A stretch of 33,642 bases of DNA, taken from contig JAZQSI010000196.1 in assembly GCA_045629985.1 (NCBI GenBank), positions 1 through 33,642 of the forward strand. The letters are read 5' to 3'. Below the pieces are notes generated by a model. It ran no database searches, was not told the origin of the DNA, and saw nothing but the letters and a program-made list of their open reading frames with translations. The position numbers and the translations under genes are program-made. Position 1 is the first letter of the stretch. The number at the start of each line of letters is the position of its first letter. Shown in pieces: positions 14,086-20,742 of this stretch. The stretch comes from Eubacteriales bacterium. Lineage in GTDB: Bacteria > Bacillota > Clostridia > Oscillospirales > JAAYXM01.

Positions 14086-14655
14086 TCACCACTCCGAATG
14101 TGATTTTAAAACCTCATCTAAAACTTCCGCCGTCTTTTTCATCGGAAGTCCTATTACGTTGAAATAGTCGCCCTCGACGCGGTTTACAAACTCTCCCGCT
14201 CCGCCCTGGATGCCGAAAGCTCCTGCCTTGTCAAGGCTCTCACCCGTGGCGATATAATCGTCAATTTCCTTTTCGGAAAGAGAGCGGAAGGAAACATACG
14301 TCTTCTCAAAAAAGCAAATCTTCTCTCCCCGCGAGATGATGCAGACGCCCGTATATACCTCCTGCGTGCCATCCGACATCGAGGTGAGCATCTCTTTTGC
14401 GTGGGCTTCATCCCTGGGTTTTCCCAGCACCTCACCATTAAAGGCAACTACCGTATCGGCACCGAGCACTGTATCATCCGGATGCGTCTTTGCAACTGCC
14501 GCGGCCTTTAATGCGGCGAGAGACATTACGTAATCCGAGACTTCGCCGCCGCAAAACGGCCCCTCTTCACACTCTGCGGTGAAGACTTCGTAGTTTTCGG
14601 TAAAAAGCGCGAGAAGTTCGCGCCGTCTCGGTGATTTTGAAGCAAGTATAAGCAT
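14086..14655 (-). CDS. maf: Maf-family nucleoside triphosphate pyrophosphatase
   Basis: ILASKSPRRRELL, GADTVV, LGKP, DKAGAFGIQG, NVIGLP. Confidence 0.93.
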   Translation of the reverse strand: MLILASKSPRRRELLALFTENYEVFTAECEEGPFCGGEVSDYVMSLAALKAAAVAKTHPDDTVLGADTVVAFNGEVLGKPRDEAHAKEMLTSMSDGTQEVYTGVCIISRGEKICFFEKTYVSFRSLSEKEIDDYIATGESLDKAGAFGIQGGAGEFVNRVEGDYFNVIGLPMKKTAEVLDEVLKSHSEW

Positions 14656-15092
14656 TATTTTCTCCCTGTTGAACCAAATCCGCCGCTTCCGCGCATTGTA
14701 TCAGAAAGCTCATCTGCCACAATGAGTTCGGGCGTTTCCACGGGCATGATGAGCATCTGCGCAATCCTCTCGTCGGGATTTATAACAAAATCCTCCTGCC
14801 CGAGATTTATGAGCCCGACTTTAATCTCGCCGCGGTAGTCGCTGTCGATTATGCCGACGCTGTTTGCGAGAGTTATGCCGTGCTTAATTGCAAGCCCACT
14901 TCTCGCGCATATCACAGCGACAAGGTTTTCCGACGGAAGTTCTATTGCAATACCGGTCGGCACCGCAAAAATCTTTCCTTTCGGAAGTGTTATAGGCTCA
15001 TCGATACAGGCGCGAAGATCATATCCCGCCGCACCGCTTGATGCGCGGGTGGGAAGATGTGCCTTTTCGTTTAAAAGCTTAATCTTTACCAT
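14655..15092 (-). CDS. dut: dUTP diphosphatase
   Basis: AAGYDL, ARSGLA, GIIDSDYRGEI, RIAQ, RGSGGFGSTG. Confidence 0.96.
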   Translation of the reverse strand: MVKIKLLNEKAHLPTRASSGAAGYDLRACIDEPITLPKGKIFAVPTGIAIELPSENLVAVICARSGLAIKHGITLANSVGIIDSDYRGEIKVGLINLGQEDFVINPDERIAQMLIMPVETPELIVADELSDTMRGSGGFGSTGRK

Positions 15093-17189
15093 TTATTCTA
15101 CACCTCTGTAGTACAATCCTCTTGTATAAACTGACGGGATAAAATCATTCCTGCCAAGATATGCATCAAGCACCGTCACGCACTCTCTCTCGTTTTCCGT
15201 CGTAAAGGAAATGCGCGCAAAGGAAACTCCGAGCTTTTCATAATCCCGCTTCTTATCCGCGAGGAAAAGCTTCTGCGAGTTTAAGATTACCGTTCTGCAG
15301 CCGAACTCCTTTGCAAGAGGGAAGGATGTTCCCGTGCGGTCCGTTAAAAACTGGCGGTTTCCGCAAACGCAAGAGCCTGTCTGCGAAGATATGACGCAGT
15401 TTTCGCATATCATAAGCGGAAGACGTCCGTACACTATGATTTCCGTTTCCATTATCTTTGAAACATCACGTATCTGGGGGAAGGTAAGCTCGGGAGAAAG
15501 AAGAGCAGAAGCGGCTCCCATGCGGCGAAGCTCGCGGAGAGCGTGGGAATTTGTGATGTTTATTCCGAAATCGCCGCGCACGGTAAAGCCAAGGCTTTCC
15601 GCAAGCGCGATGTGTCCGCAATTTCCAACAGAGGCGTGCGTTACGCCGCACTCGCGAGCAATAGCCGCAAGGCGAAGGGCTTCTTTTTCTTCCGTATCCT
15701 TTATGATTCTCGGAAAAGCGGCAACGAGCGTTGCCTTTGATGCAACCTCGGAAAGTCTTTCCCTGTTCTTTTCAAATTCCGTAATCGGGACGTATATGTA
15801 TTCGGGGTTTCTTGCAAGAAGCTCATCGCTTATCTGTGATACCGAAAGCACCGAAACCGTATATTTCGGAGCTTCTTTGCTGTTTATAAGCTTAAATCCT
15901 ACCTTGAAATCACCCTCGGGACGCTTCTTTTCTTCGATTGTGTAATTTCGCTCAAGCTCTTCAATGCACTCGCGGCGCATCGCATTGAGCGCCGAGAGAG
16001 GAAGGGCAAGCCCCTCTGAGAGCTTTATGTTTATTTCGCGGGGGGTAAATCTCGTTCCTCCCGTTTTTTGAAGCTGGGTTCGCACTGCCTCTTCGGTAAG
16101 CGCAACATTTCTTGCGCGCTCGGGTATCTGTCCCTTTGCCATTGCACGGTTTCCTTTTCCGTCAATAGCGGCAAGAAGAGCCTCGCGACCCTCTTCTATG
16201 ATGCAGAAAAAATCAACCTCTTCCGCGGGGACGGGGACTTCGGCATACGTTGCTGCCGCTTCCTCAAGGAGAGCGCGCGGGGCTTCCGTTTCGGTACGTA
16301 TTCCAAACATCTCGCGGCCTTTTTTGTTTTTATAATAACCGTCCGTAAAGCCGTCACGCGAGAAAATCTCGTGAAGCTTGCGCTTTTCTGCCTCGGTCGG
16401 TGCTCTTCCTTCTTTCAGAACCTTTGAGTATATACCCGTAACGACGGCGACATACTCGGCTCTCTTCATTCTGCCCTCAATCTTGAGCGAGGCAACGCCC
16501 ATATCGGACATCTCACATATATAGTCTGCAAGGCAGAGGTCGCGAAGAGAGAGCGGATATGCGACCGTTCCTCTCTCGCCGAGCTTATACTGCATACGGC
16601 ACGGCTGGGCACAGAGACCGCGGTTTCCGCTTCGCTGACCGATTACGGCGCTCATTTCGCACTGCCCGGAATAGCACATGCAGAGCGCTCCGTGGACAAA
16701 CACCTCAATCTCTATCGGGCTTTCCTTGCAGATGTATTTTATCTCCTCACGCGAAAGCTCACGGGCAAGGACAACTCTCGTAAATCCAAGCTCTGCCATC
16801 TTTCTGACACCCTCGAGGTTATGCACCGTCATCTGGGTTGAAGCGTGGATGGGAAGAGAGGGGCACACCTCGCGGATAAGCCGCGCGATACCGAGGTCTG
16901 CAACTATGACCGCGTCTGCTCCTGAACGGTTTATATCGCGGCATACCTTCTCAACAGAAGAAAGCTCACGGTCGTTTGCGAGGGTGTTGACCGTGACGTA
17001 AACCTTAACGCCGCGGGCATGGCAAAATCGGCAAGCATCAACAAGGTCGCTTGCCGTAAAGTTCTTTGCCAGGCGTCTGGCGTTGAAGTCGCCATAGCCG
17101 AGGTACACTGCGTCCGCACCGTTCGCAACAGCAGCGCGAAGCGCCTCGGGCGAACCTGCAGGGGAGAGAATCTCTGCTCGCTTTGACAT
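15093..17189 (-). CDS. Long U32-family Fe-S protein (RlhA/YdcP-like RNA hydroxylation protein)
   Basis: EILSPAGS, GADAVYLG, HASTQM, HGALCMCYSGQC, NRGLCAQPCR, KIEGRMK plus a long C-terminal extension. Start moved to the ATG at 17189 next to the zapA stop. Confidence 0.88.
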   Translation of the reverse strand: MSKRAEILSPAGSPEALRAAVANGADAVYLGYGDFNARRLAKNFTASDLVDACRFCHARGVKVYVTVNTLANDRELSSVEKVCRDINRSGADAVIVADLGIARLIREVCPSLPIHASTQMTVHNLEGVRKMAELGFTRVVLARELSREEIKYICKESPIEIEVFVHGALCMCYSGQCEMSAVIGQRSGNRGLCAQPCRMQYKLGERGTVAYPLSLRDLCLADYICEMSDMGVASLKIEGRMKRAEYVAVVTGIYSKVLKEGRAPTEAEKRKLHEIFSRDGFTDGYYKNKKGREMFGIRTETEAPRALLEEAAATYAEVPVPAEEVDFFCIIEEGREALLAAIDGKGNRAMAKGQIPERARNVALTEEAVRTQLQKTGGTRFTPREINIKLSEGLALPLSALNAMRRECIEELERNYTIEEKKRPEGDFKVGFKLINSKEAPKYTVSVLSVSQISDELLARNPEYIYVPITEFEKNRERLSEVASKATLVAAFPRIIKDTEEKEALRLAAIARECGVTHASVGNCGHIALAESLGFTVRGDFGINITNSHALRELRRMGAASALLSPELTFPQIRDVSKIMETEIIVYGRLPLMICENCVISSQTGSCVCGNRQFLTDRTGTSFPLAKEFGCRTVILNSQKLFLADKKRDYEKLGVSFARISFTTENERECVTVLDAYLGRNDFIPSVYTRGLYYRGVE

Positions 17190-17190
17190 T

Positions 17191-17502
17191 TTATCTGCCG
17201 CCGAGTCTTGCAATTTCGCGCTTTAAGTCTGCTATTTCAGACTTTGCACGGCTACCCTCTTCGAGGTAGTCGCGAAGCTGTGTACGGAGGTTTTCAGCAG
17301 TCTCAAGAGCCTTGTAATATTCGTCAGAGATGTTGATTGCAGAGAGAAGTGCCGCCTCAACAATCGAGAAACTGCCTGCCTTGAGAACTTCTCCGACCTT
17401 TGCATCTACATGAGATGCGACGCGGCGTGTGTACTCCTCATTCTCGCCGCTGATAAGGCGAAGCTCCACTCCTGCAATATTTACATTGATTGCGTTTTTC
17501 AT
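17191..17502 (-). CDS. zapA: Cell division protein ZapA
   Basis: INVNIAGVEL...ENEEYTRRVASHVD...AALLSAINISDEY followed by a coiled coil. Confidence 0.88.
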   Translation of the reverse strand: MKNAINVNIAGVELRLISGENEEYTRRVASHVDAKVGEVLKAGSFSIVEAALLSAINISDEYYKALETAENLRTQLRDYLEEGSRAKSEIADLKREIARLGGR

Positions 17503-17664: not shown

Positions 17665-17693
17665 TTGACCTCGATTTGATTTGGATATATAAT
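17665..17693 (+). promoter_or_regulatory. Promoter of the P-type ATPase-like/CYTH genes
   Basis: TTGACC-17 bp-TATAAT. Confidence 0.7.
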
Positions 17694-17727
17694 TTATTTA
17701 AGCTGATATATCCCTTTACTGGAGTTG

Positions 17728-19971
17728 ATGAAATTGTATCATAAATTGAGCATAGAAGAGACGCTTTCTGCTCTTGATGTTAATCCCGAAGACGGTCTTT
17801 CTTACGAAGAGGCCGCTTTTCGTCTTGTAAAAGATAATAAAACTACGAAAAAGCCGTCGTTCTTTAAGTTTGCCGCGAAAGGTTTTTCGCGACCGCACGT
17901 CTGGCTTCTTCTTGTTGCCGCGGCTCTCTCGCCGTTTCTCGGCGGAGGTCTTGTTTCGGCAGGGCTGATTCTCGCGGTAATAGTTGTCTGCACCATCTTC
18001 TCCGCAGAGTGCAAGAGACGCGGACTCAAAACCATCGAAGGCTCCGTCCGCACTTCCGTCACCCACGCGATTGTTCTCCGTGGCGGTGCGAAAATGAAAG
18101 TCCCCTCTGATGAGCTTGTCGTCGGTGATATTGTTTCGCTCAAACCCGGAAGAATCGTGCCTGCGGATTTGCGCCTTATTCGCACAGACTCTCTCGTGAT
18201 TGACGAAACCGCTCTCACGGGCGAAGGTAAACGCATGAAAGATGCGACCGTCACTGTTCCGATAAACACTCCGCCGGAGCGACGCGAGAACTGCGCTTTC
18301 GAGGGCACAGTTGTCCTTGAGGGCAGGGGAGACGGTGTTGTCGTTGCTACCGGTATGTCCACCGAAATGAGCAGGCTCTCCGTCCCGAGCGACACTCCTG
18401 CGCGCGATCCTGCGCCGGCGCTTTCGAGAATCAGGAAGCTTTCTTCGCGCCTTACGCTTATCGCAAGCCTCGTTTGCGTTGCAATATTCATAATCGGCCT
18501 TATCTACGGCGAGAAATTTATAAGCAGCGTTGCCATCTGCATCGCCCTCGCCGTTGCCGCAATCCCCGAGGGAATATACACGGCGTCTCTCACCGCTCTT
18601 GCAAAAGGAGCGTCGCGCCTTACGAGAAACGGCTATTCACTCCGCACAATAGATGCGGTTGAATCTCTCGGCGAAATTTCGGCATACATCACCGACATCC
18701 CCAAACTCGGCGTTGCCGCAACTTACACAAACGGCAGAATAAAAGCTCCTCACGAAGAAGACACCGTTCCGTTTATCGACGGACTTCTCCTTTGCGAGCT
18801 CGATAACCCGTCGCTCTCATCTTACGCATCAAATCTCTGCGAGCCCGAAGAAGTCCGCGCCGCTTTCCCGAAAATCGGTGAACTCTCGGGCGAGGTATAT
18901 ACAACTCTTCACAGAGCAGGAAAGACAACACTCTCCTATACGGGCGGCGACCCGTTTGAAATCCTCAAGCGTTCGGACCGCATATGGGAATTCGGAAGCA
19001 TCCGCTCCCTTACCGAAAGCGACCGTGATGAGATTTCCTCATGCATACGTAATTTCGAAGAGCAGGGGTTTTCCACCACCGCGCTTGCTATGCGTTCGGG
19101 AGACGAAGTCCCCTGTGACACGAATCTCGTTTTTGTCGGTATTGCCGCAACAAGTGCGGAGTGCGACCGCGCAGAAACTCCCGACACCGCCGCACTTTCA
19201 GAGCTTGGCGTTCGCACGTATCTCCTCACATCATCCGATGCCGCACGCGCAAGGCTTGGCGCAACCACACTTCGTATCCCCGAAAAAAACATTCTCTGCG
19301 GCAGGGATATTGAGCGCATGAGTGATATTGAGATTTGCTCAAACCTTTCGACCACTTTCGTCTTCGCAGGCCTCTCGCCGAAGGATAAAGTTCGTATAGT
19401 TCTCGCTCTTCAGAGCCTCGGTAACCGCGTTGCGGTACTCAGCTCATCACTTTCCGATTCTGCGCTTCTTGAAACTGCTGATGTCTCTCTCACATCCTCA
19501 CGAAGCGAGGACGCCGTCAAGGGCTCGTGCAACGTTATATACGACGGTGAAGTAAGTGCGGATCAAGCAATCCTTTTCGGAAAAATAACACGCGGCAGCA
19601 TTTCGCGCGTTATAACATATCTCACAGCCGCGAACCTCGCAGAGCTTCTTTGCGTAGGGCTCTCCGTCCTCTTCGGTTTCGGCTATCCCATGACTCCTTT
19701 TGAGATTCTCGCGATAAACCTCATTACCGATATTTTCCCCGCAATGCTTCTCGCGCTTTCGTCGCGCCACTTTATCCGCCATCGCAAGAATCTTATTCTG
19801 GCTCTCGGCGCAGTCATCGGTATTATTTCCGCCGCCGCAAGCGTGCTCTTCTCTCGTCTTTCAGTAACAGAGCCGTATTCGGGACTTCTCACGTGCGCGC
19901 TTCTCGTTTTTCTTGAGCTCGTGCTCGCTTGCCCGACATATTTTTCGGGAGGTAAGATAAATGCCCGCTGA
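17728..19971 (+). CDS. P2-type (Ca2+-like) ATPase homologue with degenerate catalytic motifs
   Basis: GLSYEEAAFRL, ELVVGDIV, VPADLRL, IDETALTGE, ALAVAAIPEG, SPKDK, INLITD present; DKTGT, TGD and GDGxND motifs are not intact. Start uncertain (17725, 17728 or 17734). Confidence 0.85.
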   Translation: MKLYHKLSIEETLSALDVNPEDGLSYEEAAFRLVKDNKTTKKPSFFKFAAKGFSRPHVWLLLVAAALSPFLGGGLVSAGLILAVIVVCTIFSAECKRRGLKTIEGSVRTSVTHAIVLRGGAKMKVPSDELVVGDIVSLKPGRIVPADLRLIRTDSLVIDETALTGEGKRMKDATVTVPINTPPERRENCAFEGTVVLEGRGDGVVVATGMSTEMSRLSVPSDTPARDPAPALSRIRKLSSRLTLIASLVCVAIFIIGLIYGEKFISSVAICIALAVAAIPEGIYTASLTALAKGASRLTRNGYSLRTIDAVESLGEISAYITDIPKLGVAATYTNGRIKAPHEEDTVPFIDGLLLCELDNPSLSSYASNLCEPEEVRAAFPKIGELSGEVYTTLHRAGKTTLSYTGGDPFEILKRSDRIWEFGSIRSLTESDRDEISSCIRNFEEQGFSTTALAMRSGDEVPCDTNLVFVGIAATSAECDRAETPDTAALSELGVRTYLLTSSDAARARLGATTLRIPEKNILCGRDIERMSDIEICSNLSTTFVFAGLSPKDKVRIVLALQSLGNRVAVLSSSLSDSALLETADVSLTSSRSEDAVKGSCNVIYDGEVSADQAILFGKITRGSISRVITYLTAANLAELLCVGLSVLFGFGYPMTPFEILAINLITDIFPAMLLALSSRHFIRHRKNLILALGAVIGIISAAASVLFSRLSVTEPYSGLLTCALLVFLELVLACPTYFSGGKINAR

Positions 19972-20554
19972 AACTGAACTCAAATACGCGCCGCCGGCCG
20001 ACTTTTTGGCAGAAGACCTCTTTTCGCTCCCCGAAATCGCACCGTATATAGGGGATATGGAAAAGTTTACAATGCAGACAGACTACCTCGACACTCCGTT
20101 TTCCGATGCGAAATCGCGCGGAATAACCCTCCGCCGCAGATACGAGAACGGAAAAAGCATTCTTTATGCAAAAACCTCGCGTCTGCGCTCAAATGAGCTC
20201 TCCATACGCGGCGAGTGGAGCGTTGAGTCGGGCGATATTACAAATGCCGCAAAGCTTCTTTATGACGTCGGCGCGCCGACGAGTGAGCTCGTGGGACTTC
20301 CGCTTGAAGTCTGCGGAAAAGTGACATTCACAAGATATGAAGCATACCTTACGCTTCCCGAGTTTTCCGCATCGCTTTCCTTTGACGAGGGGACTTTCGG
20401 TGAGAGTGTTCCGTTTTCTGAAATTGAGCTCGAGCTTGTCTCAGGAGACACGGAAGAGCTTCTCCGCTTCGGTCGTGAGCTTTCGATGAAGTACGCTTTC
20501 AAAGCAGAAACTGCTTCAAAATACGCACGCGCTATTCTCTATACAACAAAATAG
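19961..20554 (+). CDS. CYTH (triphosphate tunnel metalloenzyme) domain protein
   Basis: ETELKY (ExExK), YLDTP, TLRRRYE, RGEW, FTR, DEG, EIELEL, SKYARA. Confidence 0.9.
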   Translation: MPAETELKYAPPADFLAEDLFSLPEIAPYIGDMEKFTMQTDYLDTPFSDAKSRGITLRRRYENGKSILYAKTSRLRSNELSIRGEWSVESGDITNAAKLLYDVGAPTSELVGLPLEVCGKVTFTRYEAYLTLPEFSASLSFDEGTFGESVPFSEIELELVSGDTEELLRFGRELSMKYAFKAETASKYARAILYTTK

Positions 20555-20571: not shown

Positions 20572-20600
20572 TTGACAAAGGTCGCAAAGTAAACTATAAT
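20572..20600 (+). promoter_or_regulatory. Consensus sigmaA promoter of the uracil permease
   Basis: TTGACA-17 bp-TATAAT. Confidence 0.85.
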
Positions 20601-20616
20601 AGCATACAGTAAACGA

Positions 20617-20706
20617 CCTTTAAAAACGGTACCGAGATGCCGACAAGGAAGAGAGTTTCAAGTGTGTCAGTTACGCCTTGCCGATATTTCGGTAGGGCGT
20701 TTTTTT
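20617..20706 (+). promoter_or_regulatory. PyrR-binding leader/attenuator
   Basis: CCTTTAA...CGGTACCGAGATGCCG...AAGG binding-loop pattern, then terminator ACGCCTTGCCGA/TCGGTAGGGCGT-TTTTTT, upstream of a uracil permease. Confidence 0.8.
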
Positions 20707-20742
20707 ATGGTCAAAATTAAAAAATGGAGGAGTAAAGACATT

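Follow-up and report, generated by a model that had tools for sequence, protein, structure and literature searches.

A degenerate type IIA P-type ATPase encoded beside a CYTH protein in a bacterium of the order Oscillospirales

The window analyzed here is a whole contig stretch of 33,642 nucleotides (nt) from a Eubacteriales bacterium of the order Oscillospirales (contig JAZQSI010000196.1, assembly GCA_045629985.1). On its forward strand, it carries a gene for a P-type ATPase that has lost nearly all catalytic motifs and two transmembrane helices (the pseudo-pump), directly followed by an overlapping gene for a CYTH protein. P-type ATPases belong to the best-understood membrane enzymes, with signature motifs that are regarded as invariant. 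The pseudo-pump gene is almost certainly functional, and its product very probably does not pass through a phosphoenzyme cycle. With moderate confidence, we read the protein as a functional but catalytically dead derivative of an LMCA1/SERCA-like (type IIA) pump that acts jointly with the CYTH enzyme or in parallel to it, perhaps as a sensor that binds cations or as a scaffold; it has probably taken on a new, non-pumping job. A first-pass annotation of the DNA letters had already proposed a pseudo-pump at this position. It had overlooked that the next gene is a conserved CYTH partner and that canonical pumps occupy the same operon position in sister genera.

Catalytic motifs and fold

Motif readings were checked by coordinates and by residue-by-residue alignment to Listeria LMCA1 and 15 canonical relatives of the same bacterial family. 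The erosion of DKTGTLT, TGES, KGAPE, DPPR, MITGD, and TGDGVND described in the first-pass annotation was confirmed at every position (Table 1; the DPPR position reads SAEC), as was the survival in the window protein of the acceptor Asp, the Thr of TGD, the Lys of SPKDK, and the last Asp of TGDGVND. With respect to the HAD core, motif I of the family is D-I-P or E-L-P and not D-x-[DT], motifs II and III are kept, and invariance in motif IV is limited to the last Asp. In the N domain, the Phe segment is deleted, Arg-Lys reads GE, KGAPE reads TGGDP, and RVLA reads STTA. The residues lost here are the equivalents of SERCA F487, R489/K492, K515, and R560. These losses of ATP-binding residues are common to all 22 genus-level rows of the degenerate form, and a ten-helix relative described below (locus L034) has lost the same motifs with letters of its own.

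The short N domain and the missing helices M9–M10, both read earlier from the sequence, also hold. The acceptor Asp and the TGD Thr are 178 residues apart versus 201–206 in canonical relatives, and the N domain is ∼25 residues short. Only 79 residues follow the M6 Asp versus 163–175 in canonical relatives, so that M9–M10 are missing; an AlphaFold2 model and a hydropathy scan give eight transmembrane helices, not ten.

The AlphaFold2 model, built on a 34-sequence alignment (predicted local distance difference test score, pLDDT, 83.9; predicted template-modeling score, pTM, 0.69), has recognizable A, P, and N domains. The pump fold is whole as predicted, with the A, P, N, and M domains kept. A comparison with SERCA and LMCA1, proposed as a check in the first-pass annotation, indeed recovered this fold: Foldseek matched the model to LMCA1, SERCA, Na,K-ATPase, MgtA, and SPCA1 at E ∼1e-40, with the best TM-score (0.72) to SPCA1 in the CaE1 state. 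In a protein-atlas search, residues 300–620 alone matched only ordinary P-type ATPase cytoplasmic-domain clusters (0.89–0.93).

At the sequence level, the best solved relative is Listeria LMCA1 (E 2e-56), aligned in two stretches (4–324 and 372–681). No match to the Pfam models Hydrolase, Cation_ATPase, or Cation_ATPase_C was found in the window protein at E 0.01. The NCBIfam type II models (PMR1-, SERCA-, Mg-, and Na/K-type) match mainly residues 1–324 and stay far below their cut-offs (219 bits versus 798 for the PMR1-type model); the generic model TIGR01494 alone passes (90.5 bits versus 62.3). The Pfam matches PF00690 and PF00122, TIGR01494, the LMCA1 alignment, and the Foldseek matches all place the protein in the P-type superfamily. 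The type IIA Ca2+-ATPases (LMCA1, PDB codes 6zhf and 6zhh; SERCA; SPCA) are its best matches in sequence and fold and have the same A/P/N/M architecture and the motifs PEG in M4, N..E in M5, and N..TD in M6. Unlike these pumps, the pseudo-pump lacks DKTGT, TGES, KGAPE, DPPR, TGD, and GDGVND and has 8 helices instead of 10. Because these defining catalytic features fail despite the type IIA homology, the protein should not be filed as a Ca2+-ATPase.

A search with residues 300–748 found 95 proteins among 7998 candidates scored. The first 35 matches (P0002–P0036) are 44–100% identical and 733–768 amino acids long, except for one fragment of 596 amino acids; the next match falls to 29% identity and is a canonical pump. 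The alignment used for all residue counts below comprises 34 of these 35 relatives, the fragment (P0009) having been dropped, and contains 119 invariant columns while reaching down to 44% identity. The acceptor position (321) is always acidic (Asp in 27, Glu in 7), and the Thr of DKT is Pro in all 34. The family consensus of the phosphorylation loop is D/E-[ILMV]-P-x-[LMI], with invariant Pro and Gly. The Glu of TGES is kept in 6 sequences (absent in 28) and the Ser in 9, whereas the Lys of KGAPE has become Thr in 31 and Ser in 3. All 34 sequences keep the Thr of TGD (T499), although none keeps the following Gly-Asp, and all keep the conserved Lys of SPxxK (K552). In GDGVND, the first Asp is found in 13, the Asn in 1, and the last Asp (D575) in 34. 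Motif loss, whose sharing among orthologues the first-pass annotation had proposed to check, is common to all 34 relatives and extends to 22/22 genus-level rows and to the intermediate form. Conserved positions specific to the pseudo-pumps number 38.

The profile matches 59,002 proteins when run against 1.84 billion library representatives. Of the best three of the 150 matches listed, the first is the window's own cluster and the second is P0097 (824 amino acids), both degenerate; the third is the canonical pump P0098. Database records label the relatives as "HAD family hydrolase" or "hypothetical protein."

Because the ATP-binding residues are gone, a Pro stands in DKT, the acceptor is Glu in a fifth of the relatives, and the TGES Glu is mostly absent, we infer that the protein neither runs an E1P/E2P cycle nor pumps. 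The acceptor Glu in 7/34 and the retention of the TGES Glu in only 6/34 make this case stronger than the first-pass annotation could. A Glu that replaces the nucleophilic Asp of HAD-type phosphotransferases is not known to sustain an aspartyl-phosphate cycle. A still energized pump with unorthodox chemistry, using another phosphoryl donor or route via the surviving Asp/Glu, Thr, Lys, and Asp, would agree with the invariance of T499, K552, and D575, with the acidic position 321, and with a strongly conserved headpiece. It is nevertheless very improbable, given the loss of all canonical N-domain ATP-binding residues, the invariant Pro in place of the DKTGT Thr, and the absence of the dephosphorylating TGES Glu from most relatives. 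According to one study, a D-to-E exchange in DKTGT of a Toxoplasma P4-ATPase–cyclase leads to non-viable parasites (PMC13466520).

Selection and descent

The profile finds matches in 32/32 family genomes; within the window's genus, 18/18 other genomes carry the degenerate form. The open reading frames (ORFs) of all complete copies examined are intact (733–772 amino acids). Internal stops in two genomes (G017 and G020) were rejected as signs of broken copies, since the ORFs (744 and 743 amino acids) are intact and the stop is the natural gene end read through by the profile.

The ratio of nonsynonymous to synonymous substitution rates (dN/dS; Nei–Gojobori method, NG86) is 0.046–0.059 in five unsaturated pairs with dS 0.12–0.66, all from one subclade (L025, L026, L028, L029, and L030) other than the window's own. 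Divided by parts, these pairs give 0.038–0.045 for the N terminus, A domain, and M1–M4, 0.043–0.058 for the P and N domains, and 0.045–0.122 for M5–M8. Pairs below ∼77% identity have dS values of 1.4–2.4, near saturation, and were not relied on; the window's nearest available pair (76% identity) gives a dN/dS of 0.127 at a dS of 1.36, likewise near saturation. Purifying selection on the pseudo-pump is as strong as on working pumps, for which the corresponding values are 0.042–0.079 (canonical CYTH-linked pumps) and 0.044–0.067 (the other canonical paralogue).

The intact relatives, the shared loss, and the low dN/dS bear out the earlier proposal of an intact pseudo-pump maintained by selection, with dN/dS below 1. 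A decaying pseudogene or an assembly artefact might be suspected because nearly all catalytic motifs and two helices are lost and all records come from metagenome bins. However, the intact ORFs, the invariant columns, and a dN/dS of ∼0.05 refute decay, and the gene recurs in independent bins and in the runs of many studies, which makes this explanation hardly conceivable. Near-identical DNA occurs in gut metagenome runs of many studies, several of them labeled bovine.

In the sister genera g3, g5, g6, and g7, the ATPase encoded ahead of CYTH is canonical (862–875 amino acids, M9–M10 present), and TGES, DKTGTLT, KGA, DPPR, MITGD, and TGDGVND are intact in 10/10 complete canonical CYTH-linked rows. 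The canonical CYTH-linked pumps comprise loci L035–L044, L065, and L070 from five sister genera, with P0098 as representative. L065 and L070 are C-terminal fragments whose canonical class is judged only by their stronger match to the canonical query; the partial copy L065, from genus g4, matches this query far better than the degenerate one.

Genus g2 holds an intermediate form (L034, 837 amino acids; P0097, 824 amino acids) with degenerate motifs (CTDIPKAS, TGNQ, RGD, and TCQ) yet ten helices. L034 (from genome G001) and P0097 have an Arg (SPIERAR / SPLTRAR) where the eight-helix form invariably keeps the conserved Lys of the P domain, so that the two dead lineages have diverged in the residues that they kept.

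A maximum-likelihood tree of 45 rows (LG+G4, quick search) unites all CYTH-linked ATPases in a single clade (support by the Shimodaira–Hasegawa-like approximate likelihood ratio test, SH-aLRT, 99), within which the canonical rows are one group (93). The intermediate groups with the 22 degenerate rows (100), and their common stem, at which long branches meet, measures 0.87 substitutions per site. Canonical paralogues without CYTH branch as a clade of their own (100), and the loss of the motifs requires a single change on the tree. A 7-residue deletion in the N domain and a loop with the sequence (A/G)MRxGD occur in canonical, intermediate, and dead CYTH-linked forms alike but in none of the paralogues without CYTH; they therefore support a common origin independently of the tree. 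The CYTH tree broadly mirrors the pump tree and groups genera g1, g2, and g4 (96) on a stem of 0.31.

The pseudo-pump descends from a canonical pump that already stood in a two-gene unit with CYTH. In the tree, it falls among canonical type IIA pumps of bacteria, which match Ca2+-ATPases best. The dead ten-helix intermediate and the tree give the order of events: the pump–CYTH operon came first, the catalytic motifs were lost next, and M9–M10 were lost last, in the window's genus. The sister-genus pumps share the clade, the CYTH operon, the N-domain deletion, and the (A/G)MRxGD loop with the pseudo-pump but differ from it in every catalytic motif, in length, and in M9–M10 (10 complete copies). 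One bacterial family provides a natural series of a working pump, a dead ten-helix pump, and a dead eight-helix pump, all three sharing the operon and the partner gene and subject to strong purifying selection. This series opens a pump fold without its chemistry to direct experiment, with positive controls built in.

The CYTH partner and possible roles of the pseudo-pump

The CYTH protein shares the residues ExExK, RxR, K, ExExE, and the C-terminal K/R as well as the fold with E. coli YgiF, Arabidopsis TTM3, and Sulfolobus SaTTM. Its model (pLDDT 95.5) best matches YgiF with tripolyphosphate (TM-score 0.79), then plant TTM3 and Sulfolobus SaTTM; YgiF is also the best sequence match in the PDB (E 6.8e-05). 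The class IV adenylyl cyclases rank lower (TM-scores 0.52–0.54). Residues E4, E6, K8, R58, R60, K71, E85, R125, D142, E154, E156, E158, K187, and R190 are invariant in 26/26 CYTH sequences, and the catalytic residues are invariant beside canonical and dead ATPases alike. The protein has no CHAD domain and no match to an NCBIfam model. It begins MPAETELKY, and because only three residues precede ExExK, it cannot carry the motif HFxxxxExExK, which one preprint describes as needed for cyclase activity (10.1101/2024.09.24.614635). The absence of this motif and the rank of cyclase structures below the triphosphatases led us to reject a class IV adenylyl cyclase (CyaB type). The CYTH protein looks like a hydrolase of inorganic triphosphate or of nucleotide triphosphates, not like a cyclase. 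Two DNA metagenome runs carry a 1-nt deletion and a 1-nt insertion in the CYTH gene, 6–7 nt apart (window positions 20059–20066), so that the frameshift is compensated and strains differ in about two codons.

CYTH lies directly 3′ of the ATPase in 15/15 loci of the genome_contigs set that extend past the ATPase (three more end inside it), in 26/26 loci from 26 family genomes, and in two further genomes (L065 and L070), one of them from a genus otherwise unsampled. In all 28 judgeable family loci, from 7 genera, the pair is adjacent, with stop and start mostly overlapping or abutting; the other neighbors (ZapA, U32 peptidase, dUTPase, and permease) accompany it in only part of the loci. CYTH homologues are found in 17/17 genomes of the window's family and, across the order, in 77 of the 301 genomes sampled. 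Pairing of CYTH with the pump is specific to the window's family. The predicted-complex score for the pseudo-ATPase and the CYTH protein, computed without controls, is 0.00 (mark 0.32) and speaks neither for nor against binding.

In another family of the same order, a second, independent CYTH/P-type ATPase adjacency with reversed gene order was seen: at L071:1483-3609, a CYTH gene (1483-2154) overlaps by 11 nt the start of an ORF (2144 onwards) for a heavy-metal P1B-type ATPase with an HMA domain.

The first-pass annotation had described Ca2+-type membrane ligands as preserved. All of them are indeed present in the window protein (Table 1) and in most relatives: among the 34, the M4 Glu is Glu in 28, Asp in 3, and Tyr in 3; the M5 Asn and Glu are kept in 31 each, the M6 Asn in 30, Thr in 33, and Asp in 34, and the last-helix Glu in 33. 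Preservation is not general, however, as an early-branching subclade (P0034–P0036 and L021) has lost both the M4 and the M5 ligands, and the M6 Asp is the only invariant one among the M4, M5, and M6 ligands. Judged from these residues, cation binding by most family members is plausible. By mean column identity, the A (0.765) and N (0.761) domains rank first and M7–M8 (0.47) last. The strong conservation of the A and N domains relative to the membrane helices argues for a role of the cytoplasmic headpiece and not of the ion site alone.

The ligand counts, above all the invariant M6 Asp, would also suit a passive cation pathway, in which the M domain acts as a uniporter, channel-like leak, or exchanger through the retained M4/M5/M6 site. 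We consider this quite unlikely, since the membrane helices are the least conserved part, dN/dS is highest in M5–M8 (0.045–0.29), one subclade lacks the M4 and M5 ligands, and a pure carrier would need no strictly conserved cytoplasmic headpiece of ∼450 residues.

In the reading that we favor, the pseudo-pump would be a membrane-anchored and probably cation-binding conformational partner, either a sensor or a scaffold, in a CYTH pathway. The A/N headpiece, as its most conserved part, would be the likely output or docking surface for binding of a partner or ligand or for conformational signaling, and the co-translated CYTH enzyme would be the most economical partner. The parts of this reading differ in strength: for a functional link to CYTH we see the chances as evenly balanced, and ion sensing is a tentative, rather doubtful component.

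Several observations weigh against this reading. The link between pump and CYTH is read from conserved gene order and coupling. Elsewhere in the order, 0/12 CYTH loci taken from other families have a type II ATPase as neighbor; the enzyme can therefore do without a pump, and the pairing could reflect no more than co-expression. On the CYTH side, a stem of 0.31 shows no burst to match the pump stem of 0.87. In genome G011, CYTH is cut to its last ∼87 residues (the first ∼111 are gone; L025:1320-1583 = L018:8135-8398) beside an intact pseudo-ATPase of 739 amino acids, which may be a natural loss or an assembly fault in this metagenome bin. Ion sensing cannot apply to the whole family, given the subclade that has lost its M4 and M5 ligands. 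The four catalytic residues that survive in the window protein leave room for phosphate or metal binding in the P-domain pocket or for unorthodox catalysis. On the supporting side, contigs from two metatranscriptome libraries of two studies, which lie on the ATPase (18036–18257; 19676–19826), on CYTH (20241–20475), and across the overlap of the ATPase stop and CYTH start (19883–20032, 1 difference), give a weak hint that both genes are expressed but may stem from contaminating DNA; stretches not covered by such contigs carry no information on expression.

Some of these points would also suit an independent non-pumping role, for example, as a membrane scaffold or in protein–protein contacts of the envelope, with the CYTH adjacency as inherited operon structure. 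The occurrence of CYTH in 77/301 genomes of the order and its 0/12 loci beside a type II ATPase outside the family, the CYTH branch that is not accelerated where the pump degenerated, and the truncated CYTH beside an intact pseudo-pump fit this alternative. The pair, however, stays adjacent in all judgeable loci across 7 genera while the flanking genes change, and we regard an independent role as unlikely, if less so than the other rivals.

Pseudoenzymes often pair with active relatives, and the dead pump might pair with and tune a working Ca-type ATPase of the same cell. The genome bin (1.74 Mb, 85% complete) encodes two more P-type ATPases, a Cu-type P1B pump and a canonical type IIA pump of 890 amino acids with all motifs and no CYTH neighbor; the latter is the canonical paralogue for which the first-pass annotation had suggested a search. 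Relatives of this paralogue (at least 63% identity) are present in 13/19 genomes of the genus, this one counted. With this query, it was not found in the remaining 6/19 (G012, G015, G016, G017, G023, and G027; completeness 64–95%, two at least 90%), all of which have the pseudo-pump, and the paralogue belongs to a different clade. We therefore hold regulation of the canonical paralogue to be very unlikely.

A bolder version of the favored reading, which we rate as rather unlikely, is that of a pump turned receptor: the dead P2A ATPase would use its cation site and mobile A/N headpiece to report membrane or ion status to CYTH, switching its hydrolysis of inorganic triphosphate or of a nucleotide. 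If true, it would be a two-gene bacterial counterpart of the P4-ATPase–guanylate cyclase chimeras (P4GC) and the first bacterial P-type ATPase transceptor, and the canonical pump–CYTH pairs of the sister genera would show that working pumps already talk to CYTH enzymes.

By analogy, P4GC would be the nearest documented functional counterpart of the pseudo-pump. P4GC of alveolates and stramenopiles likewise tie a P-type ATPase module to an enzyme acting on nucleoside triphosphates, the DKTGT Asp and LDGET Glu are altered in Cryptosporidium, P4GC-beta, gregarines, and Tetrahymena, and the authors raise the possibility that the ATPase module has lost its activity and serves in support (PMC13466520). 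P4GC, as described there, are eukaryotic, of the P4 lipid flippase subtype, and fused in one polypeptide with a class III cyclase, whereas the pseudo-pump is bacterial, P2A-derived, and encoded by a separate gene, with a CYTH partner that lacks the cyclase-type N terminus.

A literature search, which covered few subscription journals, found neither a dead P2A pump from bacteria nor a pump–CYTH operon described, and the gene pair is flagged here for this reason. Judging by their listings, the nearest papers treat laboratory mutants, P5A pumps, or a survey of mycobacteria. In the accessible parts of PMC10602874 and 10.1101/2024.09.24.614635, the triphosphate-tunnel enzymes placed in operons are YjbK-type CYTH proteins, with no pump. 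Annotation by homology transfer would miscall the pseudo-pumps as calcium pumps. To our knowledge, most bacterial CYTH proteins lack a known physiological role.

Gene boundaries and neighboring features

A single unbroken ORF (17725..19971, forward strand) encodes 748 amino acids counted from its first TTG, in line with the uninterrupted frame of the first-pass annotation. The gene call on record P0002 has 745 amino acids, and this protein and many relatives begin with MYHKL, which corresponds to TTG 17734, 9 nt after a GGAG. This TTG is the likely start; the ATG at 17728 given earlier lies in the same frame but is less favored. The claimed coupling to the next gene holds, as the CYTH gene starts with ATG 19961, 11 nt inside the ATPase ORF and behind a GGGAGG. 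The near-consensus promoter claimed upstream stands as an 11/12 match, but as a consensus match only, because the region contains 5 such sites compared with 2.9 ± 1.8 in shuffles.

Table 1. Positions of the pseudo-pump, its motifs and domains, and adjoining features in the window
Feature	Position	Strand	Basis
Sigma-70-like promoter candidate, TTGACC-17-TATAAT, upstream of two-gene unit	17665..17693	+	11/12 consensus matches
Pseudo-P-type ATPase gene, 745 amino acids	17734..19971	+	ORF, Pfam, NCBIfam, alignments, AlphaFold2, Foldseek
Cation_ATPase_N domain (residues 5–69 of 748-residue reading)	17737..17931	+	PF00690, E 1.3e-08
E1-E2_ATPase region, A domain and M3–M4 (residues 113–302)	18061..18630	+	Pfam PF00122
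TGES position, reads TGEG	18217-18228	+	Alignments
M4 PEG	18565-18573	+	Alignment, coordinates
Phosphorylation loop DIPKLGV, replacing DKTGTLT	18694..18714	+	Alignments
N-domain-like insert, shortened, canonical ATP-binding residues gone	18715..19221	+	Alignments
KGAPE / KG(A/G)P position, reads TGGDP	18937-18957	+	Alignments
Clade-specific loop MRSGD in N domain	19090-19104	+	Alignments
P domain, second half (LLTSS, SPKDK, LSSSLSD)	19222..19458	+	Alignments
LLTSS, replacing MITGD, Thr kept	19222-19236	+	Alignments
SPKDK, Lys kept	19375-19389	+	Alignments
LSSSLSD, replacing TGDGVND, last Asp kept	19438-19458	+	Alignments
M5–M8, four helices, M9–M10 absent	19561..19968	+	Model, hydropathy scan, residue counts
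M5 NLAE	19633-19644	+	Alignment, coordinates
M6 INLITD	19714-19731	+	Alignment, coordinates
Last-helix Glu	19915-19917	+	Alignment, coordinates
Shine-Dalgarno-like GGGAGG for CYTH gene, within ATPase gene 3′ end	19947..19952	+	Read from sequence
CYTH / triphosphate-tunnel metalloenzyme gene, 197 amino acids	19961..20554	+	PF01928, E 6.9e-12, 46 bits versus cut-off 23.2
Unit boundary: next promoter candidate and PyrR-binding leader, both of downstream uracil/xanthine permease	20572..20707	+	Consensus scan, RF00515, PF00860

Downstream of the unit, a 12/12 promoter match (TTGACA-17-TATAAT, 20572–20600) is followed by a PyrR-binding leader (20613–20707; RF00515, 46.8 bits, below the gathering score of 54, E 1.9e-4). 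A terminator-like hairpin lies at 20673–20700 in this leader, behind the perfect sigma-70 consensus. The promoter, the PyrR-site match, and the hairpin suggest that the gene labeled "Xan_ur_permease" probably encodes a PyrR-attenuated uracil permease. Its listed GTG start (20662) is probably wrong because it falls inside the leader.

Upstream, on the reverse strand (14655–17502), lie genes for a dUTPase, a U32-family peptidase-like protein (ORF of 706 amino acids), and ZapA, head-to-head with the ATPase gene. The dUTPase and U32 genes were named by eye and ZapA by Pfam; this block stands beside the pseudo-ATPase in only part of the genus.

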